This document shows positions 10,361 through 39,374 of a stretch of 64,000 bases of DNA, piece after piece; position 1 is the first letter of the stretch; each line of letters begins with the position of its first letter. This DNA comes from Takakia lepidozioides (taxonomy: Eukaryota > Plantae > Bryophyta): NCBI GenBank assembly GCA_030704615.1, contig CM060731.1, positions 31,496,001-31,560,000 of the forward strand, given 5' to 3'. The position numbers were made by a program, and so were the translations under genes. The notes under the pieces were generated by a model, which saw only the letters and a program-made list of their open reading frames with translations, was not told where the DNA came from and ran no database searches.

Positions 10361-10659
10361 CACTCTATCTCTGCTCCTTCAGCTATCCATGCCTCTGCAC
10401 AAATCATGCATTCATCCTTGGCTTGCTGCTAGCAGCTGACAATGACAGCCTAGAGTTGTTCCAGCAAACACCCCAACCCTACTTATCACATTAGTTCTTA
10501 TGCTCAATTGCATTTGCTACTCTCTATAATCCAACAGGCATTCACCTTCATGCCTCCATTGTCCCACCATTGGCTGGGGTCAGAAAAGTATTCATTCCAC
10601 AACTTCTCCTCATCTCTGTTACCTGTTTCTAGATACTTTCTTGTTGTCACGTTGGCAGT

Positions 10660-12120: not shown

Positions 12121-14385
12121 TGGTTGAGCCCTAGAATACAACTTCCTGGCAATGGTGCTCCTAAAGAACTGGCAACAGAAGACCCAAGCCTCGAGCGACC
12201 TACTGCAGCAAAAGCATGAGAAATGAAGAGGGCGGGAGCGAGATTGATGGAGAGTTGGAGAGCTTGGGCGTGGACTAAGGAGAAGCAGACAATGTGAAAG
12301 ACAGAGGGGGAAGAGAGGAGGGTGGAGAGGATGATATTAAGGATCGTATGAAAAAGCTAGGAAGCTGTCGAGCTTCAACCCTCCCCGCATCGCTTAAACG
12401 CATGTGGTCTCCAAAGCTTCCATCTCGGACCCTAGCTATGCACCTGCAAATCATCCCACGACACAAAGAAAGAAAAACGACCAAGTCCAAGACTCATCGT
12501 TCAGCACACAACCCCGCAACCCTAAATCTATTTTGAAAATTATTTTGAACTTTTATTGGATAGTACACTTTTTGTTACCCCAGTGGTTTGGGGCTCAAAT
12601 CTTGCTACGTCCTTTTTATATGTGGTACGGTATGAGAATTTCACTTTATTGTAATGAGTATAATGTTAATTTTTGTTATGAAGTGGTAGTAGAAATCAAT
12701 AAAGGCAGGCCAAAATGAGCTAATTAATATGAACAAATTTAAATTATGTAATGCATGTTTGGCCATATCCGGGTCATATGAAACCTGTTTGATGTAGTTT
12801 TTGGGGGGGGTAGCTTCAGGGCTTACAATGCTACCTACCTACACCTCATTTTTGGGCTCTTGCAAAAAGTCTATAGATTTTTCCAAAGTATATTAGATTA
12901 TCTATTTTTTAAATAAAAAAATAAATGGAAATACCACCTAGGAGCTACAACTCACAAATTATCAGGCTTATCTACTAGATGTGACATATAAAAATTTGAA
13001 TGAAATATAAAAAAACTATTTTCAAGCCTTATAGTGAGTTCAATTATTTGGAAATTTTGTATTTTTGGAACTGGCTTAATTTATTTTCATTCTAAAATTC
13101 ATTGTTGAAGTTTGGACATTGGAGAAAATGCAAATTTTGATGGTCTACGGGCACTCTCTACCTTATCAGATCAGCCCATACCTAGGTCATTAGATAGTGC
13201 CACGGCTCTAAGTGGAGAAGAGTTGGCTATGTTGACTACCATATTTCAAGCTAGTTTTGTATGACCAAACATTGTTCCAGTTGAGGAACGTGCTTCAGAG
13301 AATGAATACTGTGATTCAGATTCAAAATAAAATTGATTGTTTCCTACAATGATTTGGACACTTGTATGTATTTTAAAGTCTGCCACAGGTGCACAAACCA
13401 CTTCAACATTTTCATGTATCACCACAAGAGTGGTACTAGTCAGTGAGGTGTCTTTAACCACAAACAGTCTACCACCGTCCAAGTGATACCAATCATTGCG
13501 GTGTCTTTAACCACTCACTATGTACCACTGTCCAAGTGGTATTAATCACTGAGGTGTCTTTAACCACATAACATTCTAGAATTAACATGAAAGACTTAAG
13601 ACCTGGCTATGTTGGCTACATGCATTTAAGCGGCATTTGTATAACCAACCGCTATTCCAGTTGAGGAAAGTGATTCACAGGGTGACGAATATGTTTCAGA
13701 TTCAGAATAAAGTTTATTGTTGGAACCATTTGTTCAATAGCATCATTCTACAATGGTCTGGACACTTGTCTGTTTTCCAAAGTCTGTCACAGGTGCACAA
13801 ACCACTTGAAGTTTTTCATGTATCACCACAAAAGTGGTATCAATCACTGTTGTGTAGGCAACCACTCATGAGTGACCACTAGAATAGTGGTTCCAATTAC
13901 TACAGTGTCTTTCACCACCCACTCTCCACCACTGTCAAAGTGGTAAAAATCAATGAGGTGTCTTTAACCACTCAAGATCAATGTGCATTGTCCCCGTCCA
14001 CGTGGAATATTATATTAATTAATTAAAATAGATTTCCAAATCATAAATCATAAATAAAATTTGAATTATTACACGTGGAGTAGCAAGTGGTTTCAACCAC
14101 TTCCCATCACCGAGGTGTCTATAACCACTCACAATGTACCACTGCACTCGTCCACATGGAATATTATATTTATTAATTAAAATATATTACCAAATAAAAA
14201 AATAACAATAAATTATTACACGTGGACTACTGAGTGGTTGAAACCACTTCCAACCACTGTCTGTGATGCCACCGTGGCATTTCATCGGGATTAACCACTG
14301 GCAAGTGGTTACTAGTGGTTTATAGAGTGGGAAAAGACAGTAGTGGTTAAAGGGCCAGTGGTTATTCCGCGTTTTTCTTCTAGTG

Positions 14386-14660
14386 TATACGGTCAGGGTG
14401 ATGATGGTGAGAAGATGGGCGAGAGAGGTGGTTGCGGATGAGAAAGAGCGAGGTGAGGCTGTCTATGAAGATATAATGTGGAGGGGAGAATGATGACAGT
14501 TGGGTGAGTGCTTCAAATATTGCCATTAGTTCTGTACGAAGTATGGTAGGAGGATCAGGAAGTCTGTGAGCAGTGCCCTGATCGGTGGCAGCATGATATA
14601 CTCCATAACCAGCGTGGGAGCCGGTGAGAGAGCCGTCGGTGTAGTGGGAGTGGGACGAGG
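14386..14660 (-). pseudogene. LINE RNase H domain (C-terminal GNEAAD part displaced to about 8490-8514)
   Basis: HYTDGS, AGYGVY, TILRTELMAI and YIFIDSLTSL; GNEAAD in ORF 8199-8561. Confidence 0.85.
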
Positions 14661-15059
14661 GAAATTGTGGGGGCATAGCTTGGCAGTATGATGGGAGGCC
14701 GGGGAGCGTAGGTTGGGCGGGGGAAGGGCGCGGTAGCGCCTTATTCCATGCCTTACTTAGGTTAACCCTAGGGAGTGGGCTGGATAGAATTGTGGGGGTA
14801 AGATGGGGGTAGATGGTGGGTTTTAGTTTGTGAGTGTGCTTTAGAACTTGATCTAGTAGAGCAGGGAAGGTGGCGGGTATGGTGGAGTGCGTGGTATGCT
14901 GGACATGGAGGAGGAGGGTGAAAGTGGGTTCTGTGCAACGGAGATATTTAGGGAGAGGTGGGGTGTGGGTGTATCGGAGTTGGTTAGGTTCGATGCGGCG
15001 AGAAGTGTTATGCCGGGTGGGAATTGTAGGAGGGGATGGGGATTGGTGGGTAGCTTTTG

Positions 15060-15350
15060 GTGAGTGAGTAGAAGGATCGTGACGTTTGACGGGGAGGAGT
15101 GTGTGGCCATGCGGGCCCATTGGAGGGCCTCATGCCTGAGGGGGCCTGAGGGGGGGTGGGCAAAGCCATTCCCTGCCCATGTGTGTTGGGTGGCGTGTCC
15201 GGTGGCACCGAAGATGCAGTCACAGGGGTGGGGGCTGGCAAAGGTTGTGAATCCCATCGGGCATGTAAGCGGACTGGAATAATATGAGTGAGTGAGTTGG
15301 AAAGTGGTAATGAGCAAAGAGAGGATGTCTAGGGGGATAGTACTGTGAGC
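15060..15350 (-). pseudogene. PCIF1/CAPAM-like adenine methyltransferase-fold domain within the LINE ORF
   Basis: IPLDILSLLITTFQLTHSYYSSPLTCP..FASPHPCDCIFGATG..GNGFAHPP parallels PCIF1 (recalled) FECFASPLNC..YCSAFPDTDGYFGSRG..GSFEANPPF in order and spacing. Confidence 0.7.
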
Positions 15351-15515
15351 AGAGGCTTGTGACAGTTTTAGAAAAGAGCGGGGTTTTTTGGGAGGGGTGT
15401 CTTGGAGGTAGCGGGAGACAAGCCAGCTAAATTTGGTAGCAAAGTCTTGGCGGGGTGGGTGGATTTGAGTGTCGCATGGGGAGGGAGTAGAGTATTTGGC
15501 CCAAAGCCATGCTGA

Positions 15516-15577
15516 CATGGTTTTAGTCATGGTTAACTAGAAGTAGGTAATTCTAGTTAACCATGACTAAAACCATG
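15516..15577. repeat. Perfect 27-bp-stem hairpin
   Basis: CATGGTTTTAGTCATGGTTAACTAGAA-gtaggtaa-TTCTAGTTAACCATGACTAAAACCATG. Confidence 0.95.
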
Positions 15578-16592
15578 ATAGTTGTCGTGCACCTAAGCAT
15601 CTTGGGTGCGTGCCTCAGAAATGGAAAACGCATCCGAGGCGGTTGCAGCTTTCGAAGGACGACCTCAAAAGCGGAAGAAGCGTTGATGGGGACATCAACC
15701 TTGGAGCGTGGGGGAGGAAATGCATGCTTAGCCCGGCTTAGCTAGCTTAGGAATCCGATTACAAAAACTTGTATTGTACAAAAATTTGTTATAAAGGAAA
15801 TGGGTTCCAAATGTTGTGCGTCCTATTTTGTTTGGAATGGTGATGCATGGTATGGTTGGCTAGTGTGTAGAATGCATGCTAGCTTATAAAAGTGGGAGAG
15901 GTAAATTGGGTTAATCGTGTGTTTGCGTAGTGCCGAAATCGGGTGACCCCCATCCAAGGGGCAAGGAAACTTGCGCCTTCTTTGGGAGTTCACGTGCTAG
16001 TGCGCACCTGGCGCGTGCGCGTACTATAACCGCGCTACCGAGGGGGTTGCCTTGTAGTGCGGGCTAACGCGGAAGCTACGTGCTTCCGTTCACGTACTAT
16101 AATCGTGTAGCCTCAGGACGAAGTCGTAGTGCGGCTTCGGCGTGTTCCCGTACCTCAGGCCAGCATTCCAAGGCGGATCCAATTGTAGTGATTGGGGCGC
16201 ACGGTTGGTTCAAGGTTATCTTCCTAGTCAAAGAGGGTTCCAGGTGAACCCTTGCTCAAGGTGATGCCAAAAGCGGCATCATGAGCGATCGCAAGCAATG
16301 TTTTTGCAGTAAGGCGATTCGATCCTCGGGGAGGATCGTTCCTTGGCCTTGAAGTAGGCCAAGAAGAGTGCACTGGGAGGAGCTGGAGAGGCTCCACCCT
16401 TGGCCGGGACTTGGAGGAAGTCGGCCGAACTAGCTAGTGGAGAGTAGAGTCAAGTGTGGGGTTTGGTTCTTTGCCATGGGACGCCATGGTACGGAAACAA
16501 ACTCTTTGTTGTGGGACGCCACAACTTGGATGTTCGTTTCTACAAAATGGACAAGTCGATGAGGACATCGACTCCCTGTTGGTAGGGGTGTG

Positions 16593-17313
16593 TATCGCGG
16601 CCCTTTGCCTTGAGGGCAGGGGGTCGGGACACATGAGGGGCTGCCCCTGTGGTGGGGGCAGCGATAGGTATGGGGGGGCTGAAGCACCCTTGAGTGCCCA
16701 AGGCACTCGAGTAGGCGGAGGCGCTCACTAGGTGGAGCCCCGCACACCGGGTTGCGGTGGGGGTGGCTCCACAAGGGGTGGTGGTAGCTTAGCGGGACTT
16801 AGTGGGGGTGGCATAGGACTCACCATGGGGGCGGAGACCTCGTGGTGGGAGTCGTGGGAAGTCTTGGGACTCATCACGGTCCATAGGGGCCGTGGTGAGC
16901 GGGCCAAGACTCACCGCGACTCATCACCGGGAGTCGAGGGTTTTCGTGGTGGTTCGCCATAAAATGGCATGGCTGGTTGTGAAACCCCCGCGGACAGCTA
17001 CAGAAGTATATATAGGGAGTAGTAACCCCGTGAACGGTGCAAGCCCGTTGGTGACCAAAAACTAGTGAGTAAGCGAGCGAGCCGGAAAGCGACCAAAGAG
17101 TGGGGAGCTGTTCCGGACTGCCATCTACCAAAGGGAATTCCACTAGTCCCAATTAGGTGGAGGGTTTAGTGGGAAGCGAAGGGGGGACCGTTATGTCCCG
17201 GTGAGCAGCCGAAGCTCCAAGTTGGCCCGGCGGCCAGGTTGGGAGTCAGGCGCGCGCATCAAAGCGAGTAACTATGACGTGAAGGGGAGCTTACGGAAGG
17301 GAGGTGCACGACA
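16593..17313 (+). mobile_element. LTR of the same family as 8888-10360 (solo LTR, or 3' LTR of a deleted element)
   Basis: High similarity to 8888-10360, ends ...GCACGACA, flanks GTGTG/GTGCG (near-TSD), preceded by a purine-rich PPT-like stretch. Confidence 0.75.
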
Positions 17314-18539
17314 GTGCGGAGTGTAGGGATTAGATTAGCACTTGTGTGTTGAAGAGCTTGGGAAGATAGCTCTTGTGTTGCAAGGTGTTGCATATATTAC
17401 AAAGGAAAATCCTTGTGGTGTTAGGGCTTTGAGAGATATTGCTTTGCCCTAAGGAGGTAGAGAGCTCAAAGATGGAGCTCTTGTAGATCACAAGGGTTGC
17501 AAGGAAAGATACTTGTGGTGTTACACCAAGGTGTTGGAGAGCTCAAGAAGGAGCTTGTTGCCACAAGATTTGCAAGGATTGCAATAGGGAAGTCTTGTGT
17601 GTGTGGAAGCATGGATTCTAGGGTTTGATAATCATTTCTATGCATTATGGAGTCAATGGTGTGTGCCATGGCTTGAGGAGAGCAACTAAAGGATTGTTAG
17701 TGCTCATTTCACTATCAATCTAGGGTTAAACAAGCTCAATTGTGGATGTTGTGGAAGAGAAGCCAAGGAGCTACATAGGCTTGGGCTTGAAGACAACAAG
17801 GGCAAGCACTTGGAGAGCATTAAGAAGCTCAAGAGGTTTGAAAGGAAGCATATGGGTGAAAATTCTATACATGATGATGTGAAACCAAGTCTAGAGCATT
17901 GAAGAGCTTGGAGCACATGTAGGAGATCATTGGAGGTGATCTTCATGAAGAAAAGAGATTGTGGGTCAAGGCATGCATAGCAACTTCAACCATACATTAG
18001 CATGTGACAAGACAAAGAAGGGGAAGGTGAAGCTCATGTATTCATTCCCTTTGGGCTTAAGTTTTGTGGTGGAAGGTTGATCAAGCAAGTGATGCTTATG
18101 TGGAGCATGCTTCCCAAGTGTGGCTTCCAACTTCAAGCTTGAGGAGAGCTAGAAGGTGAAAAGAGCAAGTTGATTCCCTTGTGCATGAGGTGATGCATGT
18201 GTGGAGCATGCTTTTGGCTTGAGCTTTGCAATTTCAAGCTTGAGAGGAGTGGCTCTTGAGCTAGCAAGTGAATGGAGCTTGAATGACCAAGGCTTGAGAG
18301 GAGATAAGGCTTGGTGGCTTGCCAAAGGAGGTACAAGCTTGATTTTGAGTTCCAATGAGAAATTGAGCTTGTTGCGTGGCCAATGCATTGCTAGTTGAGT
18401 TGGAGACAAACTTGAGTAGCTTAAGGTGAAGAAGATCAAGGGAATTTGCCTTGGTACCCCATAGAATTCATGGATGCTTGAGGGGATTAAGCATAGAGCC
18501 CCAAGGAGCACAAACCCTAGCTTGGTAAGGCTAAACCTC

Positions 18540-19070
18540 AAGGAAATAGAGGGGGAAGTGGCTAAAGCTTAGGGGGAAATGGCTAAACCCAAGGGAAAAT
18601 GGCTAAACCCTAGGGGGAAATGAACTACTCTATGAGGGGGAAATGGCTATTCCAAGGGGAGAAATGGCTATTCCTAAGGAGAATACAAGGGGAATACAAG
18701 GGGAATACGTATAGGCCCAAGGGAATACTGGGGGAATACTATAGAATATTCTCAGGAATATTCCTAAGGAACCTATTGGGAACTTATTGGGAACTTGGGA
18801 ACGTATTGGGAACATGGTGACATAGGAAAAGCCCTTGGAGGACTGTTTGGAGGGCCATTGGGAGTCCTTGGGGGACTGTTTGGGGTCCTTGGAGAACCAT
18901 TTGGAGGACCATTGGGAGTCTTTGGAGGACTGTTTGGGGTCCTTGGAGGACCATTTGGAGGACCATTTAGAGTTCTTTGAAGGACTATTTGGGGTCCTTG
19001 GAGGCCAATATTTGGCGAGCTTGAGGAGTCTTTGGCGACTTGAGTGAGGGACTATTTGGGGTCCTCGAGG
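18540..19070. repeat. Short tandem repeats inside the LTR-like region
   Basis: GGGGAAATGGCTA(AA/TT)CC about 5 times, then TTGGAGGAC(TGT/CCA)TT(T)GG units about 12 times. Confidence 0.85.
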
Positions 19071-19797
19071 GCTAAGTTTTGGCAGGCTCTTGGGGCCTTG
19101 GTATACTGTTTTGGAGTCCCATTGTGCAAGGATTAGGAGCCTTAGTGAGATTGTTTGAGAGACATATTCTTGAGGGCTCCTGGAGAGTTATTTGAGAGAC
19201 ACTTGAAAGGTAGTCTTGTCTATTATTCAAGCAAGAGAGTGTGGAGATAGGGTAGTGGGATGAGGGCATGCTGGGATTAGGAATTGCTTTAGTCTCTATT
19301 CCTTGTAGTCTTTTACCCTCTCTGTAGGCCAAAACCTTTCCGTAGGTAGAGGCAAGAGTCAGTCCGGGTTTGGGCTGGGGTGTCATTGCAAGAGCAACAC
19401 TGTGGAGTGTTTTTGGTGTTGGGGAGTTGCTGTCTTGATTCTCTTGTGTTTGGATCCCCTCCACATCTGCATGCTTAACTGTGCGCCATGTTAGCTTTGT
19501 ATGTGCGCTTGTTTTCATAGGAGGTTGGTCCGGATTTGATCACCGGTCAATCCTAGAGCGTGCTGTCGGTGGTGAGGCTGGGGTGATGACCAGTCAGACC
19601 ATCATTGTTTCTCTTATGGTGAGGCTGGGTTGATGACCAGCAGACCATAGGAGTGCTTGCGGTGGATGCAGATGCAGGTTTATGTTACGAACCTAGTAGT
19701 CTAAGCCATAAGCCGCAACAGGTTCTCTATCCGGTTACCTTGTGGAAAAGGGGATTAGAGATAGGTTTACAACAGGTTGTGAGTTTTCATCACGGAG

Positions 19798-21397
19798 GTG
19801 CCACCAGTTGCTGAGGAGAGTGCCGGTACAAGCACCAGCGATACTAGTGGGTATACAAGACGAGGTGTGCGGTTTAGGCCACCTTCACCTTCAGTGTTTT
19901 CTGAAGAAGGTTCAGACTCAAAGTTAGGAGGATTCTCGCCGAGGGTGCAAGTCATTTCCGTGCCATTGTTGTGGGATATGATGGAGGAACTGTATGGAGC
20001 TACCAAGGGGCCACGTCGGTACTCTGGAGCTATGGGCACCATCGAGCTTGATGATTTCATACAAGAATTTGATAGTTGGTGTGATTTGCAGCAGATGCGC
20101 AATCCACAACTGTTTACGCCTTTTATGGCGTGGAAGGGGCTGTTTCAGCACCTTGAGGGGCCGCCCATGGATGACTACCATGAGTTTAGGCAAGGACATG
20201 AGGTGGAGATTGAGGAATGGCGGGTGTATTGGTCACCTGACTATGTCTCCATCATTAGAGGCACAAGGGCAGTGGTGACACTGGCAGCTTCTGCAAGCAG
20301 CAGTGGGACGTCAAATGGAACAGGAGCTAGGAAGTCCACCCAAGCTCCTGCTGCAGCCAACACCCGTGCCTGCCTTTAACCCAGTTGTGGAGTTCTTCGA
20401 GGAGTTAAGGAGAAACTACCAGGGGATAAGGACGGAGAAATTGCGGAGCTTGCAAGAGTTCCAACAAAAGCCTACCGAGAGTTTAAGGGAGGCTTACACG
20501 CGCATGAGGCGATTGATAAATGTAACCCAAGGGGTGACGGAAGCTCAAGTAGTCCAATTTTGGTATGGGATATTGGACAAGGAGCTGAGGAGAAGGGTGC
20601 GGGATGCAACTCTCCTACAAGTGGCCCAACCCACCTTAACAAACGTGTTTTTGCTGGCAGAGTAGATAGAGCTCAATATGGTGGAGGAACGAGTGGTCAT
20701 GGTGGGGTTTGGTAAGGAGACACAACAAAGTGGGGCTCTTAGCCAACAACAACCACTACCCCAACGTGCTCAAGGCAACAAAGAGGCTCAGGCGAAGCCC
20801 AGGGAAGGATAGAGAGGATCTCAATTGCTGAGGTCACTTCCTTCATTCTCAGGCCAACAACAGTCAGAAGTGACATGTTGGGATTGTGGAGGACCCCATG
20901 TTAAGAGAGATTGCCCGGAGAGAGGCAAAGGGTCGGCACGGGCACAACCTACACAACCACAGTGTGGGCATTGTGGCAAGTATGGGCATGAAGAGACCCA
21001 TTGTTATGATGTGCATCCTGAGTTACGGCTAGACCAGATCCAAAGGAACAATGGTGGCCGAGGACGAGGCAATGTATTCCAGAGAGGTAGAAGAGGCAGA
21101 GGTCGTGGTGGAGGTCGTAACCAAAACCAAGGAGCACAGGGTCAAGATCAAGGTCATGACCAAGGCATGGTGGATAGGCTTGCCCAGCTAGAGCAACGTC
21201 TTGCTACCATGGCCACTACTCATGTTGTGCCTGCTACAAGGCCCGAGGTTCAAGCCCCACCTGCACAACCTCCTTTGCGTAGGGTAGACCAGATTGGTAT
21301 GGGCTTCATGTGTGGAGCCGTACTTGCAGGACCATTGCATGTGGACTCTGTAGCTGCTGTCACTCGAGCAGCAACACGTGCTCCTGAGCCAAGATGA
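19798..21397 (+). pseudogene. gag: Ty3/gypsy gag
   Basis: FQQKPTESLREAYTRMRRL (capsid MHR-like), zinc knuckles CWDCGGPHVKRDC and CGHCGKYGHEETHC, RGG-rich tract. One frameshift and stops. Confidence 0.85.
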
Positions 21398-21844
21398 GCG
21401 AATATGGATTTTGATCCACAAAGAGGGGAAGCAAGTCTGCAGACAAGGCTTCCACAGTCTTTCACATTGGCTGAGACAGTGCCAACTATGCCATCGATGA
21501 CACCCGCTCGCCCAAGTGTGTCAGAGGTAGAGCCACGAGTGCCATTGGGGAAAGTTGGTATGGCTTGGGAAATGCCAATGGGTGGTTCTGCAAAGCAAGG
21601 TGCAGCCAGTACATTGTTGGGGGCGGCTACGGCAATTTTCCAAGCTCCATTGTTTTCTACCACGACAATTGCAATGTCGGGGATGCGGCCAGTTGCAGTG
21701 TTTAGACTGGCAGTTGTACTCTGTGAGAGTGGTGATGCATCGGCACTATCTGCGGGGATAGCGGTTTAGGTGCAGTGCATGGATGCCCTGGATTCAAGGG
21801 TGAAGACAGCCACAGCTGCGCCATGACAAGCGGCAACTACAAGG

Positions 21845-22400
21845 TTGCAAGAGTTGCCAGCTAGACCAGCCATTAAGCGTAGTATGGTGACTCCTGGGGT
21901 AGTCCTGGTGGACAATCAGGATGGTGTGTTTCAGTTGGGTGGCCCAGCCGGGAGGAGGTATAGGCCACTGCAGGTCTTGTTGGACTCGGGAGCACAGCCA
22001 TTGATGTTGGGGAGAGCAGCAATTGTAGGCTTGGGTCTTACAGAGGCGGATTTGGAGCCTTGCCCTTTCCAAATTCAAACATCTTTGGGCGGTTCAGAGA
22101 AGGCACGAAGGATTACACGCCATGAGTTCTTCATTCGATTGTACCCAGATCATCCTACAGATGGCTCTGTCATGAGAGCTAAAGCCATTGTTATGGATGC
22201 GATGTCTTATGATGTGTTTGTTGGTGGGGCTGTGTTATACCCGATGGGCTTTACTTTGGACTTTTGGGAAGAAACGACATCCTACAGGCCGGAGTGGCAG
22301 TCAGGAAATTGCCGACGTGCACTGCTCCCGATGCGGTTTATTGGGAATGTAGCGGTGGATCATAGGAACATGATGCCGACATTGGCTGCATTCTCAGGGG
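21845..22400 (+). pseudogene. Retrotransposon aspartic protease
   Basis: VLLDSGAQ active-site motif; YDVFVGGAVL C-terminal motif. Confidence 0.85.
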
Positions 22401-22683
22401 TGGTGAGCTCTTGGAGGGCAATAGCCATGCAGATGATAGGCCACCACCTGATGAGGACAAACAATTGGCATACAAGACTGATTTACTTCCTCATGTACCT
22501 GTTCATATTCCACTGTGGGGTACAGTTAGGAATTTGTATCGAGTAGCAGGCAAGTGTGTACACCAAGCATGGCGGGAGGCCTATCCATTGGTGAGTGAGG
22601 GGAGTTTAGTGACATCACCTAGACCTCCTCAGTTAGCTCCTTTGGATACAGTGCCCATTACCTGGCAACCACCTGACTCAGGG

Positions 22684-23610
22684 ATTTGTTTGCTAGACCT
22701 GTTTGGAGGCATGAGCACTGGGCTTGCAGGAGTGTTGCAAACTGGGATTAAAGTATGAAAGTACTTGTATGGGGAGAAGGCTCGGCGTATTTCTATGCGC
22801 CACATTGCCTTGCTCACACACCAGTACCCTGAGTTGCTGCCTCTCTCAGCAATTCAAGGGTACCAAAAGGCCTTGCCAGCAGACATTATCATGTTGGGGG
22901 CGGATGATTTGGACCGGCATGGTGCCATTGACTTGGTGATAGCTGGATGACCTTGCCAATGACACTATCCCGTAGGTCATGGGAATGGCTTGCATGATGC
23001 ACGATCGCATTTGTTTTGGGAGATGTTGAGAGTGTTGCGTGACTTGCAGACGAGGCAAATGCAACCTCTAGCCTATATCTTGGAGAATGTTCCTCTTACG
23101 GGAGACTCTCGGGCCAGGGTTATGGCCAGTGTGCATCAAGTGCGGTCTTGGATTGGATCGGCGGTGTTATTGGAGTAGCAGCGGTGGGATCACAAGCGCA
23201 TCGACCTCGATTGTGGTGGACCAATCTTGCACCACCAGAACTGCTCAAGAGAGCATACGATTCCATTCAACGGCCACCCAATCTCAAAGTTGAGGGCATT
23301 TTGGACCAAGGGAGGCAACCACAGAGGGTGCGACATGATGACCTCCACCTCTAGCAGTAGTAAATTGAGTGGGGCAACCACATGCGGCCTTGCCTACGCT
23401 TATGAGCTTTCCCTCGTCTCATGCTTTTCGAGACAAAGGTCCTGGGTTGATTTGGGACAATGTGCTACAACAATTGGTGGAGCCCAATGCAGATGAGCGA
23501 GAGCAGACAATGGGATTTGCCACGAGCACTACAACTGTGCCAGCTCTGTCAGAGGCATCACGATGCCAGGTGTTGGATCATGCAATGGATCTCAATTGCT
23601 TGACATGGGT
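22684..23610 (+). pseudogene. DNMT3-type C5 cytosine DNA methyltransferase domain embedded in the pol region
   Basis: Motif I LLDLFGGMSTG; motif IV IDLVIAG*PCQ (PC at 22951-22956); motif VI YILENV; motif VIII SQAHRPRLWWTNL; motifs IX-X EREQTMGF..SEASRCQVLDHAMD. Stops at 22756, 22948 and 22960 and a frameshift near 23175. Confidence 0.92.
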
Positions 23611-24099
23611 CATTGGTTTATGCATGGCTGAGCAACGGAGATTGCAAGCATTGGTGGCTATTTCTGTACTCCCATTTGGTATTGTATCTCCTCTACGAAC
23701 CGGGACGGTTGAGGCAGTGAGTGGGGGTGAGCACAGGATCATGGGGTGCAAACACCCATGGCAGATGTGGGATGAGATGCGGAAAGAGAGAGTCTTTGGA
23801 TCTCTCAAGCAGCAATATGAGGAGCGGGGAGAGCCATACACTGAGGATCAGTTGGAGGCCAAGGTGGCCAATGTTTTTAAAGAGGTTGAGAATGTTTCTT
23901 CCCCAGAGGATGTTCTCAAGGTGGCTATGGCAGAGCAAGTGGAGGCTACGCCACGGTCAGGGTGTGCGGATAAGGCCCAAGAGGTTGCTATCTAGTAACC
24001 AAAGGATGCGTCTCCTACCTTCAAGCCTGGTGTACCCAAGGTTGCAGTCACTGAGGACAACTGGGAACCAGATGTTGGACCTACAATCACCGGAGGAGA

Positions 24100-25719
24100 G
24101 AGACGGAGGATCCAGTGATTTCTAAGGGCTTATAGAAATTGCTTTGCCTTCGGTTTGAAGGATTTGGGGAGTTTGAAGGGTCAGGAGATTTGTATTGATT
24201 TGACAAGTGACACGCCAATCTTTCGAAGGCCCTACCGATATAGTACATGGAGAGGTCATTGATCCAGTCATGGACTATGGAGTTGTTCAAAGCTGGATTG
24301 GTGGAGTTGTCAGGCGGGGAGTATACCTCGGCAACGGTGATGTCAGCTAAGAAGGATATCTATGGCAATTGGACAGAAAGAAGGATGTGTGGGGACTATC
24401 GTCCTGTGAATCGTCAGACTAAGTCCAATAGATATGTCATGCCAACTCTAGAGGAAATTTTTGATGCCATTGGGTATGCAAAGGTGTTTAGCACATTGGA
24501 CTTACGATCCGGTTACCACCTGTTGCCAATCAAAGAGGCTGACAAGCAAAAGACGACATTCTGGGGGATTGACCAACATGAGAAGGATTGCTTGTACCAA
24601 TGGCGCTTCCTACCGTTTGGGTTGAAGAATGCTCCTGCAGAGTTTCAGAGGGTTATGGATAGGATTCTCGCGGGGCTAGAATTTGCCCTATGTTACATTG
24701 ATGACATCATCGTCTTTAGTGCTACGGTTGAGGAGCATGAGAGACACCTTCAGGTAATGTTTGAGCGCTTGAGAGTGCATGGGTTGAAATTGCACCCTGG
24801 GAAGTGCAAGTTCTTCTACAACCAGATTGAGTATCTGGGCCACATGATATACCTTGGAGGATTGGGTGTTCAAAAGACGAAGGTGGAGGCCATTGTACGC
24901 ATTCCACGCCCCATAGATGTTAGCAGAGTTCGTGTTTTCATGGGGTTGGCAAACTACTATCGACGGTTTGTCAAGGGATTTAGCAGCATTGCAAAGGCTC
25001 TTCCCAAGTTGACCAAGGTGGGTCAGGAGTGGCAGTGGGAGGAGGAGCAGGAGGAAGCCTTTGAGGAACTCAAGGCTCAATTGACTTCTGCACCTATTCT
25101 GAGGCGGCCTATTCGGGGGCGGCATTTCCAGCTACATACGGATTGGAGTATGCTGGGGATTGGAGCAGTGCTCACACAGGTGGATGATGAGGGAAGAGAG
25201 TTCGTAGTTGCATATGCTAGCGGCTCAAACAATGATGCCAAGGCGAAGTATAGTTCCTATGAAGGGGAGTGTCTAGCTGCGGTATGGGCAGTGACACATT
25301 TCAGATGCTACCTCTATGTCAATCTCTTCACCCTTGTCACGGATCACCAACCATTGAAGTGGTTGATGAAGTCAGACAAGCTTACAGGGAAGCTTGCACA
25401 GTGGGCACTTATGCTTCAAGAATACAACTTTCAGGTGGTGCATCGAGCTGGTATTGTCAATCGGGATGTAGATGGATTGAGTCGTAGTCCATGCATGAGC
25501 AAGCATGATGATATTGGAGCTCGATGGCATGGTGAGACGGATGAGGAGATGGTGCAAGGATGGCATGCATCTGCCTTTTTGTACATCCTAGCGATGGGAG
25601 CTCAAGCTGGTCCATCCCATAGCATTGGTCATGTAGATGGTGTGCATGACGATCTGGAGATCAGTGAGGAGCTTGGTGGTGCTAAGGATGCATCAGTGTT
25701 GGCCTACCTTCGTACATGA
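24100..25719 (+). pseudogene. pol: Ty3/gypsy reverse transcriptase-RNase H
   Basis: RMCGDYRPVN, TLDLRSGYH, PFGLKNAPAEFQR, YIDDIIVF, LHTDWS, YSSYEGECLA and TDHQPL. Confidence 0.95.
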
Positions 25720-25734
25720 GAGACAGCAGCCAGT

Positions 25735-26745
25735 GTGACTGCTAAGGAGAGAGATCGGATCCTCCAACGAGCCAAGATGTTCAAGTGGGATGGGACTCAC
25801 CTACTCCGAATATGGGAGGATGGACGAGTGAGGATTGTGCCTCATCCAACACAACGAGCGCGATTGGTACACCATGCCCATGAGGAGTTGGGACATATGA
25901 CAGTACTGGTGGCGGGACATGCACACGGATGTGCAACAGTTAGTGGCAAGGTGCATGGTGTATGATAAAGTGCGGGCTTCTTTCAATTGCATCCTTTACC
26001 CATTATGGGTTTGGGCTATCGTTGGAGTCTTGACTTCACAGGCTAATTGCCACTAACGATTCGCCATAATAAGTATGTGCTGGTGATGGTGGAACATTTC
26101 TCCAAGTGGATTGAACTGGTGGCATTGCCTGACAAGGCAAGTGAGGGGGTTGCGTATGCATTCTTAGATCGAGTGCTTAGCCAATTTGGTGCTCCAGCCG
26201 AGGTACTCACGGACCAGGGGAGAGAGTTCTTGGGGGAGTTTCAGGCTTTGTGTGAGCAAGCCTTGATAGATCACCGCATTACTTCTCGGGATCATCCCGA
26301 GGCTGATGGCCTGGCAGAGAGGGTTGTACAAACAGTCAAGCGAGGCTTGCGCAAGTATGGCTTGCAGAAGGGACACTTATGAGATTGGGACCTTCAGCTA
26401 CCTTGGTTGGCCATGGGCTACAGGTTTAGCAAACAAGCATCACTTGCCTCGTTCTTGCCTTATTTCCTTCTATTTGGCCGAGAGCCAGATTTGCCTGCAT
26501 CTATTCGCAGGGAGACTGCAGTAGTCCTCAACCTTGATGATCCGGATGTGTGGACACAAGCATGTGCCCAGCGGGCAGAGTTGTTCAAGAGAGTCATGCC
26601 TATGGCTTTTGAGAACCTTGCTATTGCCCAACACCGAGACACATTGAGGTACGTCACTATACGTGGAGGGGGATATCGGCCAGGTGTTCGGCGTTTCCAC
26701 CCTAGGGACTATGTGTATCTGCAGCAGACAGCGCCCACTACAGCA
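25735..26745 (+). pseudogene. Ty3/gypsy integrase, 3'-truncated
   Basis: HEELGH..CxxC, WSLDF, EHFSKW, LTDQGREF and DGLAERVVQTVK. Ends abruptly at a poly-G run. Confidence 0.92.
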
Positions 26746-26747
26746 AA

Positions 26748-27055
26748 TGGGGGGGGGGGGGGGTTTGCGACGCCAGCCGCGCCCCCAAGCCCCGCGCGAC
26801 GCTGAGCTCGCGGCGTTTGTTTGCGACGCCCCGGCGTCGCAATCCTCCGCTGCGACACCATTTCGATGCCCAGCCGTCGTAAGGTGGCATGAAGGGGGAA
26901 AGAGGGCCCTCGCTTCGACGGTTTTTTTTTTCTTGCGACGCCATGGCGTTAGAAATTTTTTTTTTTTTTTTTTTATTTATTTTTAAATTTTTTTGGGACG
27001 TTGCGACGCCGAGCACCTCTGCGACGCCAAGGCGTCGCAACAGCATCACCATAGT

Positions 27056-27096
<41 letters not shown>

Positions 27097-27215
27097 GACT
27101 TTGCGGCCCTCAATTTCACAAAAGCGTCGCTGGGGGCGCCCCGCGCTGGGACGCCCAACGTTGTGACGCCAGGGGGTCGCAATGGCGTTGCCACAGGGGG
27201 TCGCAATGGTGTTGT
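26748..27215. repeat. CpG-rich insert with TTGCGACGCC/GGCGTCGCAA motifs in both orientations and long homopolymers (probable DNA-transposon end)
   Basis: More than 10 GCGACGC/GCGTCGC motifs, poly-G and poly-T tracts. Confidence 0.55.
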
Positions 27216-27665
27216 GGTCAGCTTAGGTCATCACAAAGACGTCGCTTGGGGCGTCTGGTGGTGGGGAAGGTGCAACAACGACGACGATGCTGGGGCTGGG
27301 GCTGGGCACTAAGGCTGTGGAGGGAGAATGGTTGTGTCCACGATGCCTTGGCCATAGGTAGTGGGCATGACAATGATGTAGTTCACAAGTGATCCAAGGT
27401 CTAGCGCTCAACGCCATGGATACTCAATTGAAGATCATGGATTGCAAGCATGCGACTAACGATGGGGCTCTTGTTGCACCCGGCCTCTTGATCCATATAC
27501 TTTAGAAAATTGTGAGATGTGCGATTGCAGACCAAGCGATGATCTTATTGAGATGAATACTTGTCAGCTATCCGGTGTTAGATGGACCTAATCACCAGCT
27601 AGGGGGGCGATTGTGGCATAGCTTACTAGGATTGTGTGCTTAGAATGTATGGTGGACAACGATGT

Positions 27666-28135
27666 CGGTTCCTGAACCTCCTCGACTTAAATATTGCCTC
27701 CACCTCGTACTCAGGTTCATTTTCATGATCCAACAGCATAGGTGGCGGACGCAACACTTGATGCCGATTCGGACGCGCTTCATCTTTGAAGTAAGGCTTC
27801 AAAAGGGAGACATGGAATATTGGGTGCACCTTGCTGTTTGCCGGCAGCTCCAATTCATACACATCGTCATTCATAACCTTCCGAATGCGAAAGGGTCCCG
27901 CATACGGAGGTACGAACTTCGGACTCACTTCCGGAGGTAGTCGGAAATTCTTGATGTTCAACCAGACCTCTGTGCCTGCCTCAAACTTCACTTCCCTTCG
28001 CTTCCGATTCGCCTGCCTTTCATACCGTTTCCTAGCTTTGGCAATATTATACTTTGCGAGCTTCAACAAACGCTCGCGTTCTTCCAGTACCGCCGCTACT
28101 GCCGGTTCCTCAACGTCCTGGGCGGCCCAACTCAC
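27666..28135 (-). pseudogene. Fragment of a different chromovirus integrase C-terminus (GPY/F module plus start of chromodomain)
   Basis: ANRKRREVKFEAGTEVWL, KFVPPYAGPFRI, YELELP, HPIFHVSLLKPY and EYEVEAI. Lies between 56-bp direct repeats at 27610-27665 and 28247-28302. Confidence 0.9.
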
Positions 28136-28632
28136 TTGGTATGTGAGACCAAATGAAGTCCCAACACACAAAATACAAATATAAATATCCAAAATATCCT
28201 AGTTAACTAGAAGTAGGTAATTCTAGTTAACCATGACTAAAACCATATTGTGGCATAGCTTTCTAGGATTGTGTGCTTAGAATGTATGGTGGACAACGAT
28301 GTATGTTGTGGCACGATGCTTAGGTGCACAACAATGCTAACCTGTCATTGGGAATGAGGCCGAGGAAGTGGCCATTGAAGGTGTAGATGGTGGACATACG
28401 CGGGGCTTGACAGATTGTGGGGGAGGTATGCAAGATGTCCTTATCCAGGTTGCATTCTGTGATGTGTATGTGTATGTTGGAGGTGGCAGGCGGTTGATGT
28501 ATGTAGCGGGCATCTGTGGATTGGGTTTATGTTGTTAGTGGGTATGCGCGAGGTAGTTAATATTAGTGTGTTTGTGGAATGCGGTAAGGAGTGTGAGATT
28601 GTGGGCGGGGTCACAATCGTCGTGCAAGCCAA

Positions 28633-28775
28633 AGAGGTTATCCTCGATTTGCCATGAGTTATCATTTGCTATGAAGCCAGCCCATTGGCAGAGGTATTAT
28701 GTATCAACGCATGGTGCTCCATATGAGTCTGTAGAAGTTTGGGTTTTAATACCTAGGATGGCTTCGATAACGTAT
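28633..28775 (-). pseudogene. Chromodomain within the LINE ORF
   Basis: Manual translation YVIEAILGIK...DT*YLCQWAGFIANDNSWQIEDNL matches the chromo pattern YxVExI...YLxKWxGY...NTWEPExNL. The single stop is TAA, probably from CAA. Confidence 0.75.
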
Positions 28776-29299
28776 GCGTCGGGGTTGGCATGGTGAGCTG
28801 TGGGGGTGGTGGGTGAGCATGAAGAGGGAGGGGATTCAGCAGAGGTGAAAGTAGTCTGCGTAGGAGAGGGCATATGGGGGTGCACGGGAGGGGAGAGGCT
28901 GGAGGAGAGGTGGATGTGGATGGGGTGACGGTGTCGTGTGTGTAAGAGGTTTGGGAAGTTCTAAGTGTATGTAATATAGAGGGAGATGGGACTGATCTAT
29001 AGGCGGGTAATAGGGCTCGTTGAGTGTGTGGGAAGAGTAGGCATGGAAGATCACATTTGAGGGTACATGATGCAGAGGGGTGACAAAGTAGGGTGCATAG
29101 GTGTTGGAGAAATCTGCAAGTTTTAGCCATGGCTCGAGAGTGTTTAAGAGTGAATTCACCTGGGGATAGTAGTTGAGTACCGGTGACGGTGGTAAGTTGG
29201 GTGAGATGAGTGATATGTTGTTCTTTAAAATAGGTGAGGAGGGGCCACTTTTGGCGGGGATGGAGGCGTTCAAAGTGGGAGAGGGATGGACTAGTGTTC

Positions 29300-30720
29300 A
29301 AATTGTGTTCTAACTGTGATACCGTGTTGGGATAGCCGGGTAGATCAGTTTGTATGCTAATATGCCTTTGTCGCAGAATGAATAGTGTAGGTGCCGTGGG
29401 GGAGTGGAGGGATGGAAGGGATTGTAGTCCATTGAATTTTTGGGCGAGGAATTGAAGGAGGCCACGATAGATGAGTCCCAGGTGACCGGGGTCGTTGAGA
29501 GCTTCTCGTAGCTGGGTGCCGAGGGTACGGGCATATGAGTTGATTAGGGGGATAGAGCCGACACCATAACAGTCTGTAGGTAGTTGGGTAAGAGCGTTCG
29601 GAGTACTAGTGGGTAAACCACATATCCGCTTGGTTAGCTGGGTAAAATGTTTGTCCAGTACTTTGAGATCCGGCAGAGAGAAGGGAGTAGCGTGGAAAGA
29701 GTATTGGACTTGTGGCTTAAGCACAGAGCGGGTGATTGCTAGCTTAGGTCTAATGGATACAGAGGATTTAAGAAGAGCTAGGCTTTTGTTGGTTAGTTTG
29801 GCAAGTGTTGTGGCCTTTTGTACATGCCAGGTAAGTGACGGGACTAGCTGGATGCCTAAGTATGTGTAAGGCTCGTCAGGCCGTAGGAAAATGAAGGGAT
29901 TATTTAGGTAGTGGATATAGAGTTTACAGTGGGAGGCAATCGTAATCTTCTTTAATTTACTGTGATGGGTTGTTGCGGTAACGGCGCACTTGTGGAGGCT
30001 GAGTTCCATGCCAGACCATAGGTTAAAGCGGGATAGTTTGCTGACTTGGCGGTTTTTGAAGTCAATATACATGAGGTAAATATCATGTTTAGTGAGTTTG
30101 GCATCTTCGAGGGCACTATAAAACCTCACCGAGTGAAATATCCGCTGCCGCATATGCTGACGACCTCGCTATACTAGCCCACAAACCCCAACACCTCTTC
30201 GGATCCTTAGATCATGCCAGATTACTTGCAGTCATAACGGATTTAGGCTATCCCACCAATGATATCCAACTCATTGGCAACATTTATACCAACAGTACTA
30301 CTGAGTATTCCGGTTTATACTATGGCACTACTCCCCACATCCCTATCATGCGCGGCACTATATAAGGTGACACCCTTAGCCCATACCTATTTATTATCTT
30401 TCTAGAATCACTACTACGATGGCTAGCACGCGGTAATCTTAGTTCCCCGTAGTTGGATAACAGCGCGGTTAGTGTGCTGGTGAACAGTTTATAGATGGTG
30501 TTGGCTAGGGCTATGGGTCTATGATTACCAAGGTTAGTGGGATCGTCTTTCTTGAAGAGCAGGATGGTGCGGCTATGTTTCCATGTGTGTAGGGATACGT
30601 TGAAGCTGATAGCAGAGTTTGAAAATTTTGAAGATAAGGGTATGGAGATTGGGATCAAGTGCTTGTAGTATAACATCAGGGATCATATCGACAAGCCCGG
30701 GGGCCTTTGATTTGGGTAGA
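29300..30720 (-). pseudogene. LINE reverse transcriptase domain (core rearranged)
   Basis: TILLFKKDDPTNLGNHRPIALANTIYKLF, ALEDAKL, IDFKN, KC and YTYLGI on the minus strand. RGTI*GDTLSP and AYADDL lie on the + strand at 30117-30440. Confidence 0.9.
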
Positions 30721-30747
30721 CTTTTGAGGCAGGAGTTGTAAAGATCA

Positions 30748-31444
30748 CACTACAACAGATCGCGGTAGTTATGACTGCCAAACCGTGGTAGTCATGGTTT
30801 TCATGACTTTGACCATGACTGCACCATGTTTTTATATGAAATTGACCTCCCGCAGTTGTTCATACAACTGTAGTCATATAAACGACTATCTAAATAGTCG
30901 TCTGTATGACTACATGGCTCCGAAATGGGCGGAAGGCTGGTCAACGGTAATTGACCAGATTTAGCTCACCATTCATAGTCATTTCCATGACTACAGTGTA
31001 CATGGATGAGGTTACATAGTCATGATGACTACTGGGGATTTTGTAATTTGGTGTGTATAATACAATTAAAACACCATATGATCATGTGAATGACTAATGG
31101 GTATATTGGTTAACAGGTAGTGAACTATAACTCTCATAATAAAGAGGTTGCAGGTTCAAACTCCTCTAAGTACAATCAAATGGATAAGATGGCCCTAGGG
31201 TTAGTAGGCGAGCTATGGATAGCACGTGGTACCCTAGATGGATTGCCACGTGGTTTTTTCATTATTATAAAATGCATTATGCCACGTGGCACAATGCGGT
31301 GCGACGCGACATTTGACATATGTTTTTATTTTTTTAGTTTCTTAATTTAATTTAATTTTTTAAATCAATTGTGCCTCGCCACGTGGCGTGGCAGCGGCGG
31401 CTGCAGTATCGTATATATGACTGCAGTGAGAGATATCACTTGGT
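30748..31444. mobile_element. Second, truncated copy of the 871-bp CACTA element, in opposite orientation
   Basis: Starts CACTACAACAGATCGCG and is the reverse complement of about 9126-9846. The other end is lost together with LINE sequence. Confidence 0.92.
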
Positions 31445-31869
31445 AAGTAATGCGGGGGTCTTGCCTCCGTTCTATGTAATGACTGTTTGATGGGGAGTTA
31501 GGAATGATAGTAAGGGCACGACGTATGGTATGATGGGTGTTAAGGTGAGAGGTCCAGGCACGTTTTTGAGAATGGGTGAGGTGACCGCCATTTTGTTTGG
31601 ATCTAGTGGTTTGGGGTAGGTCCTGTGGGGCCGAGCATGTTACCGACACACTCTTAGTCATTTCTTGGAGGATGGTTGTGAGGGTATGTTCGGCCTCAGT
31701 CCAGAGAGGGTGTATGAGAGTTTTTGGGTAAGGAGTGATGCGTGTGGTTGGAAGTGTTTTAGAAATGCGGTAATGTTATGTTGGGGTAAGGGTGAGAGGA
31801 GACGAGGTTGTGGGTTGTGGGTCTGGGTTGGGGGTATGGGCCGGATGGGAACAAGGGACGGGGGAAAAG

Positions 31870-32650
31870 AGACCGAGACTGGGTAATGATCTGAATTACA
31901 GATGCTGTCAATATGGATATGACTTGTGAGGTATGCGGGGATTTCACTAGGTGACTTAAGATAAAAACCGTCGATAAGGCTTAAGGACGAGTAGTTAAGA
32001 CCGCCTTGCCTTGACTAGTGATGGTCTGAAGGTATGTACCTGAGCTGATGCTTATGTATAAAGTGGGCCTAGTCTTGGTCAAGAGAGGGTGGTGGTTTGT
32101 GGGTACCATTGTATGTATGGCCCCGTAGAGCGATATCTCGGTTAAAGTCACCTGCTAGTATGTAGTCATGGTGCTGATGCGTGGGTTGCGTGATTGTGGC
32201 AAAGATTGTGTGCAGTATGTCAGGTATCAAGGGTAGGTCATCAATATGGGAAGGCATGTATAAGTGGATGAGGGTGATGGGGGTCAGTGAGGAGAGGTGC
32301 AATTGGACGATTTGAAGATGACATCTGAGGGAGGGGTACTAGTCCTTTTGTGGTGGTACAAGAAGAGTGATGAGTACGGAGGATGCCAAGCGCAACTCCA
32401 CCCCGGGTAGGGCAGTATGGGGCAGAGCAACAACGGAGGCATTGTGGGGAAGTCATGGGAGTCCCGTATATGAGATAATAAGTTGGTAAGAGTTTGTTGA
32501 TGTAGGAGCTGGTGGTGTTGGAAGTGTGTAATTTGGTTTCTTGTATGAAAATAACATGTGGGGGCGTGGAGTCTGTAAGGAGGTGGATCAGGCTTTGGAT
32601 GTTGGTGGCCAGGGATCCAACGTTCAAAGTGGTGATATTGAAAATGTGTG
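31870..32650 (-). pseudogene. LINE apurinic-like endonuclease (APE) domain
   Basis: Motifs TLNVGSL, FIQETKL, GGVALGI, HLYMPS, ILAGDFNRD and SDHYPV in the expected order, with frameshifts. Confidence 0.9.
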
Positions 32651-39000: not shown

Positions 39001-39374
39001 CATGGCTGATCCACGGGTGGTATTTCACAGGCGTCATCGGAGGATGAGTCCGAAAGCTCAACTACAGTGTCAACGGTACTTGACTCCTTCTTGACAACCA
39101 TGGGTGTTTTCTCCTGGGCCACTAATGCTGCCGTTCCAAGAGTAAGGAACGATCCTGCAGACTGTCTTCGAGGAGCACTGAGCACCCTGTATCTACCTGG
39201 AGGCACTCTCCATTGTGTGGTTGGTGCAGTATGCAAAGGTTTCTGGAACGCGTACTTGAGCAATTTTCCATTGGCATCGTACACTTCCCTCCCAAGGAAT
39301 AGAGTTCCATTTTGCACAGGGTGGTCATCACTGAAGAAGTCCGTGTCAAGGGAGCCCATGGCTTGGGAGGCCAT
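36077..39374 (-). pseudogene. MULE-type transposase with GCM/WRKY-like N-terminal domain, DDE core and SWIM finger
   Basis: DRHPWCRTKTS..CNGHLKC..CGARMYY..H.G.H; FLMFDHVKR; GFMADSAQA; LFHW; NLAETVH; CTCPDF..PCKHL. Several frameshifts. Confidence 0.85.

Follow-up and report, generated by a model that had tools for sequence, protein, structure and literature searches.

Can a retrotransposon of a land plant bring its own DNA methyltransferase into its replication cycle, and what would such an enzyme methylate? The question is raised by a window of 64,000 nucleotides from Takakia lepidozioides (the whole stretch of DNA that was analysed; contig CM060731.1, positions 31,496,001 to 31,560,000), in which an earlier note, made from the sequence alone, had described a Ty3/gypsy element with a DNMT3-type domain between protease (PR) and reverse transcriptase (RT). 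We find a dead copy of a Gypsy-Dnmt3 element and, on balance, favour a reading in which the methyltransferase domain ends the Gag-protease frame at a leaky stop codon, is packaged in bulk and methylates the element's own cDNA. The concept is known, as the note acknowledged, and has been in print since 2018 (Gypsy-Dnmt3; PMC5890265, cited here, like the other papers, from those parts of the text that were accessible); what is added is the land-plant range, a domain linked to Gag and followed by a stop that is likely leaky, and termini that suggest insertion from a circle.

Organization of the element

Three-frame translation of positions 19700-26800, combined with Pfam searches, gave on the + strand, in succession, gag, two zinc knuckles, protease, C5-methyltransferase, RT, RNase H (RH) and integrase (IN), the same single-strand order that had been read before. 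This order, together with the DDE integrase, is that of Ty3/gypsy. Gag was recognized by PF03732 (E 2e-6, 20279-20662), and its start is 74% identical to Marchantia Mp_4g09160 across the first 94 residues; the protease has LLDSGA at 21980 and a weak PF13650 match (E 0.028); RT and RNase H matched Pfam at E 1e-32 and 8e-33 (24244-25716) and the integrase core at E 1e-13 (26047-26379). The element is decayed and lies at 15513-28333 between two copies of ATGC, i.e. a 4-bp target-site duplication (TSD). Its end had been placed at 26745; what lies there is an insertion that interrupts the element at ~26740, after which the element resumes and reaches 28333.

Every gene of this copy is broken. The methyltransferase carries 4 stops in ~320 codons, as against 5 in 685 for the gag-PR piece, 1 in 551 for the RT-RH piece and 2 in 254 for the IN piece. 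The suggestion that the domain has decayed to the same degree as the rest of pol therefore stands as to the order of decay, although RT-RH is cleaner. The coding features are as follows (L numbers are metagenome loci and P numbers are proteins).

19783..21250, + strand: gag with 2 zinc knuckles; frameshift near 20300 and stops (PF03732)
21857..22315, + strand: aspartic protease, DSG at 21983 (53-56% identity to L040, L005 and L004)
22681..23641, + strand: DNMT3-type C5 cytosine methyltransferase, unpermuted motif order, with 4 stops and 2 frameshifts; assigned from PF00145, homologues and the L040 model compared with DNMT3A
23993..23995, + strand: conserved UAG ending Gag-PR-DNMT, in frame with the coding sequence before and after it; RT-RH-IN is likely reached by readthrough here
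24062..24891, + strand: RT and its leader, YIDD at 24694, frameshift near 24244 (PF00078)
24892..25488, + strand: RNase H (PF17917, PF17919)
25720..26740, + strand: integrase that has lost some of its zinc-finger part and is interrupted at 26740 by the insertion (PF00665)
26741..27290, no strand assigned: nested insertion with many GCGACGCC repeats and poly-T; right boundary approximate; outside the family, few other copies covering this bin
27312..27361, + strand: last residues of a C-terminal PHD finger (GEWLCPRC); L061 has a PHD finger at the corresponding position (E 9e-10), and the window remnant has no Pfam match by itself

A DNMT3-type methyltransferase

The PF00145 profile, which the earlier note had proposed as a check, recognized the first frame piece of the domain (with X at three TGA codons) at 37.6 bits against a cut-off of 22 (E 2.3e-9). 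The two later pieces had no Pfam match alone and aligned collinearly, without introns, to uninterrupted homologues, which themselves match PF00145 at 23-58 bits. Stops lie at 22756, 22948, 22960 and 23366, and there are two frameshifts (~23176 and 23343-23356) rather than the one reported. An intronless enzyme with motifs I, IV, VI, VIII, IX and X had been placed at 22684-23610; the intronless state and motifs I, IV, VI, VIII and IX held, whereas motif X is degraded at both checked positions, in this copy only, and the span becomes 22681-23641. The window copy keeps the motif I Phe, the motif II Glu, PC, EN, both motif VIII Arg, the Thr of the target recognition domain (TRD) and the motif IX Glu-Arg.

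The best solved relatives of the window domain are DNMT3A, DNMT3C and DNMT3B, ahead of HaeIII, HhaI and DRM2. With a profile built from 50 homologues DNMT3A came first (E 9e-26), and the E values were 4e-13 to 2e-9 for DRM-type enzymes and 2e-8 for HhaI. The AlphaFold model of the L040 domain, made from the 50-row alignment, has a pLDDT (predicted local distance difference test) of 96, and Foldseek placed it best with DNMT3A/B/C (TM 0.73/0.83), with ~21% identity to human DNMT3A when aligned structurally. Although the rows are 32-71% identical, all 50 have the catalytic Cys and the ENV Glu, and the two motif VIII Arg occur in 48/50 and 47/50. The DNMT3 type proposed at first sight was thus recovered by sequence, by profile and by the modeled fold, and the domain almost certainly belongs to the DNMT3-like C5 methyltransferases. 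A bacterial or phage methylase was rejected, as both sequence and predicted fold are nearest to DNMT3, and so was a DRM-type permuted enzyme, since the motifs are unpermuted and the DRM matches are weaker than that to DNMT3A.

Family membership and host range

A search of longer proteins returned 28 homologues, 15 of them named Marchantia polymorpha (51-68% identity) and one Sphagnum fallax, which bears out the extension into land plants that had been suggested. These proteins read gag-PR-DNMT, and one from Marchantia (P0010) continues into RT and RNase H. Among the metagenome loci (the best 80 of 117 in the scan), read by eye and with duplicates of one insertion included, PR lies upstream in 64/80 and RT or its leader downstream in 58/80, with no other order. 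L004 and P0029 of S. fallax agree at 100% in the last 141 residues, and most loci are therefore regarded as Sphagnum-like. L040 is a divergent copy that runs from gag to integrase in one frame with just two stops in 2114 codons. In the sequencing runs that hold the window's DNA, other copies cover the domain in all of its bins, and there are contigs that connect motif I with the protease side; a joint that skips just the domain is not among the 15 joints listed (294 further ones exist). Eleven proteins have a PR match and no methyltransferase match, all of them below 340 residues and so uninformative on loss of the domain.

Searching the full library gave 422 representatives at E 1e-30 or better, and viral contigs gave no match to the domain or to RT. 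Among 126 proteins with a near-complete domain, it precedes RT in 32, follows RT-RH in 60 and was left unassigned in 34. Named members of the PR-DNMT-RT layout are Klebsormidium nitens GAQ93235.1 and Closterium; those of the RT-RH-DNMT-IN layout are the chlorophytes Scenedesmus, Haematococcus and Cymbomonas. The latter group is the larger, has a C-terminal PHD finger (P0053, P0072, P0125, P0228, P0237 and others) and was not met in the accessible literature.

The two layouts separate in the DNMT tree (SH-aLRT 99; 64/144 rows) and again in the RT-RH tree (support 100; 28/72 rows). The DNMT tree was a quick one, drawn with midpoint rooting and leaving out near-duplicates and intron-spliced gene models. 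Both trees have the same nesting, with L064 outermost, then the window copy and L040, then Marchantia with the Sphagnum-like family. As the trees share layout split and nesting, domain and RT have travelled together. The domain groups with Klebsormidium and Closterium proteins; the K. nitens row falls on the window's side of the DNMT split (support 99, in an unrooted tree where K. nitens has a single row, while the RT tree has none from this species). Judged from these sequences, the element is probably a land-plant member of the published KnitGypsy-Dnmt3 kind. That the domain is a family trait and not a retrocopy, the point on which the note had made its reading depend, is supported by homologues, layout, trees and purifying selection, and by the lack of flanking poly(A) or duplication in the window.

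P0010 (Marchantia) and L005 (Sphagnum-like) are sisters with short RT branches (0.078 and 0.071, support 99), nearer to one another than either is to the window copy. This closeness would possibly come from horizontal transfer or from old paralogous lineages.

Selection and base composition

The note had also suggested estimating dN/dS. For the window copy, L040, L005 and L004, the domain gave dN 0.27-0.32 at dS 1.5-2.6 (dN/dS about 0.1-0.2), and identity was 63-66% in the domain against 50-56% in PR; comparison with L064 gave dN 0.50-0.52 with dS saturated. Between families, purifying selection acts on the domain. Singletons of the Sphagnum-like family behave as neutral (w, i.e. dN/dS, 1.07). 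L040, which is nearly uninterrupted, is poor in CpG (observed/expected, o/e, 0.27) and not in CHG (o/e 1.22), a composition that fits CG methylation during replication and also host methylation.

A conserved stop between DNMT and RT

The domain does stand between PR and RT; it is not, however, a part of pol in the sense first given, as it ends the Gag-PR frame at a conserved stop codon. In 53 of the 56 rows that hold both the domain end and the RT leader, a stop is found at one place, 17-23 codons ahead of the leader and in the RT frame. Domain and RT are in frame in 39/56, the others being shifted by indels. The 47 distinct Sphagnum-like junctions keep the stop in 44, as UAG-CAA-CCC (28), UAA-CAA-CCC (13) or other stop forms (3); one has a sense codon and in two the site was not located. 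L040 has UAG-CAA-CCA. For the window stop (23993-23995) no variant is listed among other copies in 4 runs, which have a CARYYA hexamer behind the stop; neighbouring bases vary. Homologous proteins often end ~75 residues past the domain (71-77 in several from Marchantia and JGI). The first frame of this clade thus encodes Gag-PR-DNMT and the second RT-RH-IN-PHD. The one continuous Pol frame with RT, a trait of Gypsy-Dnmt3, is found in Closterium and in relatives from ENA and is not found in the window clade.

UAG-CARYYA is the readthrough signal of tobacco mosaic virus and is weaker with UAA (PMC4132726). The window's family and L040 share UAG and the hexamer with this and other plant-virus signals, from which they differ in that the stop comes after PR-DNMT and not after gag, and in that the Sphagnum-like copies have CAACCC. 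From this context it is probable that the two frames are joined by readthrough at the conserved stop.

Several observations weigh against this. The Sphagnum-like context CAA-CCC is one base off CARYYA, and 13/47 of these junctions have UAA, the poorer readthrough codon. In dead copies stops are also retained passively, decay being for the most part C to T. The same layout exists without any stop in P0044, P0226, P0238, P0188 and Closterium P0200, so an excess over RT is not needed everywhere. Three further points speak at the same time for another route, in which the stop is real and RT-RH-IN is made by splicing, from an internal promoter or by reinitiation: most Sphagnum-like copies have an in-frame AUG two codons past the stop, no conserved 3' hairpin or RNA structure stands out behind it (z +1.2 to -2.9), and the junction of Candida Tca2 was not sufficient for readthrough by itself and contained a minor promoter (PMC2194720). 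Annotated gene models, moreover, skip the stop via predicted introns. These introns vary between gene models, however, four families or copies have no such AUG (L040, L064, L042 and the window copy), and both the frame (39/56 rows) and CAR-CCN are kept. We therefore regard such a route as unlikely, and it would leave the excess of Gag-PR-DNMT unchanged.

Terminal repeats and integration

The ends of the window copy, and the non-coding parts next to them, are as follows.

15509..15512, + strand: left target-site duplication ATGC, identical 4 bases at 28334-28337
15513..15580, + strand: repeat A at the left end, a short hairpin unit with TG start; last 45 bases equal to 28202-28246 (45/45), boundary placed from the TSD
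15583..15601, - strand: the right tip repeated in inverted orientation, directly inward of repeat A (19/20 match to 28315-28334)
15602..19782, + strand: 5' non-coding region in which parts of other repeats are probably nested (16828-17313 is found again at 9874-10360)
27577..27610, + strand: conserved 3' motif with a polypurine tract at its end (31/34 identical to L061, where repeat B comes next)
27612..27665, + strand: repeat B, first copy, shortened (55/56 identical to 28247-28302)
27665..28201, - strand: unrelated Tf2-like integrase C-terminus fragment replacing the B1/A2 junction (PF24626, E 2.5e-14; loose ends 27665 and 28132)
28202..28246, + strand: repeat A, second copy, partial (match to left A)
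28249..28333, + strand: repeat B, second copy, the element's right end (...GCACAACA, as in related loci), from repeat comparison and the TSD
28334..28337, + strand: right target-site duplication ATGC

In the Sphagnum-like loci the left end is repeat A (~340 bases, TGTCATG) and the right end repeat B (113 bases, ...GACA). Among the 27 right ends there are 20 with B alone and 5 with B-A-B, and the other 2 reach a contig end. The 4-bp duplication is exact in 7/11 elements with both ends, with 3 of 4 bases in two more. Behind the polypurine tract, which lies ahead of the first B, B + A read as an ordinary TG...CA long terminal repeat (LTR), and the B|A boundary inside it is where the tips of the inserted element fall. 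The short TSD and the TG...CA ends are those of gypsy elements; two complete direct terminal LTRs are not found, and the ends are A...B or A...B-A-B, i.e. a gypsy element with permuted ends. The DIRS-like order A-coding-B-A-B is complete in 5 related loci, and the window copy has the same order (two B, a partial second A) except that a foreign fragment lies over the inner junction. A DIRS element, which would have a tyrosine recombinase and neither integrase nor protease, was rejected, as DDE integrase, protease and a 4-bp duplication are present.

Split ends combined with a DDE-type duplication suggest insertion from a circle. Circular cDNA is usually treated as a dead end. In L061 the bases just past the left A (2017-2038) are the reverse complement of 10511-10532 inside A (21/22), which is the pattern expected of Tf1-type self-priming instead of a tRNA primer.

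What the enzyme would methylate

We propose that readthrough yields Gag-PR-DNMT in excess over Gag-PR-DNMT-RT-RH-IN-PHD. Fused behind Gag and protease, the domain would be packed in bulk into the particle, inside which the protease would free it. The freed domain would then methylate double-stranded cDNA, most likely at CG, and the copy would enter the genome already marked. Methylation of cDNA is the simplest job, as the only double-stranded DNA in the particle is new cDNA, and the same has been proposed for SymbioDIRS-Dnmt3 (PMC5890265). The cDNA would close into a circle, to be opened by integrase at an att site (B|A) that lies within the LTR. Circles with one LTR would give A...B and those with two LTRs A...B-A-B. 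The mark may hide the copy from host sensing, protect the circle, or temper the element's own activity. From the position and conservation of the domain, we lean towards methylation of the element's own cDNA in the particle as its role.

A number of points count against this proposal. The TRD loop has no conserved Arg at the place of DNMT3A R836, a position that we take to lie in this loop, and CG preference is for that reason not predictable. Within the Sphagnum-like family, for states present in at least 4 loci, w is 0.59 in the domain, compared with 0.32 in RT, 0.23 in IN and 0.81 in PR, a weaker signal of selection that is confounded by recurrent CpG decay. Two host open reading frames in the window are as low in CpG (o/e 0.26-0.32) as L040, so that CpG depletion does not separate self-methylation from host methylation, the comparison having no control element from the same host that lacks the domain. 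All loci were collected via the methyltransferase, and copies without the domain could not appear among them. The trees contain no outgroup and no bacterial enzymes, and the absence of host DNMT3 from them is a further weakness. The form A...B can also arise from A...B-A-B via recombination between the two B copies. Lastly, in yeast the domain from Klebsormidium did not produce de novo methylation, a result that its authors considered inconclusive because DNMT3B failed too (PMC5890265).

A different target is conceivable. The domain may ride with the integration complex, the PHD finger of the integrase guiding methylation of the insertion site or of neighbouring chromatin rather than of cDNA. 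The position of this finger at the integrase C-terminus would suit such a role, as would the chlorophyte layout, which puts the domain between RNase H and integrase, where it would stay near integrase. In the window clade, by contrast, the domain is in the Gag-PR frame, across the stop from integrase, and we consider guidance to the insertion site improbable. Still less probable is that the domain is kept for a job other than DNA methylation, i.e. binding or protecting cDNA, joining ends, or methylating RNA. The inactivity of the Klebsormidium domain in yeast (PMC5890265) and the occurrence of the domain together with split ends both here and in Klebsormidium are in keeping with such a job. 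Against it are the near-invariance of the catalytic Cys, the Glu and both Arg across rows that are 32-71% identical, a predicted fold nearest to the DNA-acting DNMT3, and the methylation of CG in yeast by related SymbioDIRS-Dnmt3 domains (PMC5890265). A one-time insertion of a host DNMT3 retrocopy into a gypsy element has virtually no chance of being the right explanation: the intronless state and nothing further speaks for it, and it is refuted by homologues with the domain at the same position in many copies and several lineages, by congruent trees, by contigs of other copies that bridge the protease side to motif I, and by the lack of poly(A) or duplication around the domain in the window.

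Beyond the favoured cDNA reading, we offer a wider proposal as a speculation, and a doubtful one. In an old green gypsy lineage, from chlorophytes to bryophytes, a packaged DNMT3 (in land plants at the level of Gag, before a leaky stop) would methylate circular cDNA that inserts via an att site within the LTR, and CG-methylated arrivals would seed heritable methylation without RNA-directed DNA methylation or host de novo enzymes.

Relation to known systems

The closest published system is KnitGypsy-Dnmt3 of Klebsormidium nitens, with DIRS-like repeats and purifying selection (de Mendoza et al. 2018; PMC5890265). The elements described here share with it the Gypsy domains, an intronless, unpermuted DNMT3-like domain, purifying selection and DIRS-like split repeats. 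K. nitens GAQ93235.1 (P0130) reads zinc knuckle-PR-DNMT, with a domain 34% identical to that of the window. They differ in that the Gag-PR frame ends at a CARYYA stop whereas the paper states one Pol frame, although P0130, a partial gene, likewise ends 12 residues past the domain. They differ also in their land-plant hosts, which make the lineage wider than 'the K. nitens lineage' of the paper, and in the C-terminal PHD finger; the accessible text of the paper does not mention 4-bp duplications or an A...B form. The words 'Marchantia', 'liverwort' and 'Sphagnum' are absent from its main text, and 'Marchantia' and 'Sphagnum' from the text of three supplements (figures excluded).

SymbioDIRS-Dnmt3 of Symbiodinium likewise has a DNMT3-type domain, split direct repeats and a proposed methylation of cDNA, but it is a DIRS element with tyrosine recombinase, an independent capture, and was active on CG in yeast (PMC5890265). 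EpiLTRs/DAM-LTRs are LTR elements with methyltransferases too; their DNMT, however, is sister to DNMT4 and lies at the 3' end of pol, and they have in addition DAM and a chromodomain (bioRxiv 10.64898/2026.05.21.726589). Gypsy-7a_cRei and REM1 of Chlamydomonas are green-lineage gypsy elements with a PHD finger and an LTR drawn in subparts, but the figure legend names no methyltransferase and the PHD finger lies between RNase H and integrase (PMC9940879). PHD fingers are common in Chlamydomonas elements (PMC9940879, PMC9977147, PMC8557442). Host DNMT3 of bryophytes and animals shares fold and motif order with the domain described here and differs in the ~21% identity (human DNMT3A) and in its accessory domains, which are absent here. 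The element-type homologues of Marchantia are hypothetical proteins at NCBI and have other gene numbers than MpDNMT3b, which is Mp5g09290 (bioRxiv 10.1101/2021.02.12.428880); in their accessible text the Marchantia methylation papers name host enzymes only (PMC5784723, bioRxiv 10.1101/2021.02.12.428880).

We found no report of land-plant Gypsy-Dnmt3 copies in a literature search that left subscription journals mostly uncovered. The accessible text of PMC6453930 and PMC11982613 has nothing on land-plant copies. bioRxiv 10.64898/2026.05.21.726589 names 'streptophytes (Gypsy-DNMT3)' as a known case, and it and PMC12344493 use 'streptophytes' in citing or echoing the 2018 work; the supplementary trees of both could include some such copies.

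The role of transposon-borne DNMTs has been unsettled since 2018, the sole gypsy case being an alga with a domain that was silent in yeast. It becomes testable because Marchantia polymorpha, a model for which mutants and methylomes exist, has close relatives with an uninterrupted domain among its hypothetical genes. Should the stop be leaky, the element would make the enzyme at capsid level, which would indicate that it truly needs methylated cDNA. Together with the DDE-type duplication, the split ends suggest that circles are the inserted form. In practical terms, these copies inflate DNMT counts in bryophyte genomes and evade LTR finders that require two terminal repeats.

Neighbouring features

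The element interrupts a long interspersed nuclear element (LINE) on the - strand (window 14380-15512 and 28334-32726); with one ATGC counted, its frame is open for at least 40 codons either side and reads in-frame across the site. Past its RT region the LINE has a PCIF1-like stretch (PF12237, E 5e-5, under the cut-off) and then RNase H (E 2e-4). This stretch may be an adenine methyltransferase-like domain; it had no match among solved structures, and a literature search found no paper joining all its terms.

A 0.7-kb non-coding repeat occurs at window 9126-9847 and 30747-31444 (95% alike, opposite orientation), the second copy lying within the LINE, and there is a tandem array with a 181-base period at window 10670-11812. 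On the - strand, window 36080-39377 holds likely pieces of a Mutator-type transposase with a SWIM finger (PF04434). On the + strand, window 51086-55684 is a 1533-codon open frame, Cys/His-rich and with 150-base tandem repeats, that has a weak CPXCG match as its only Pfam match, and window 48634-50823 contains long exons of a WD40 gene whose best matches in the longer-protein search are hypothetical proteins of Marchantia (41%) and Riccia (37%).

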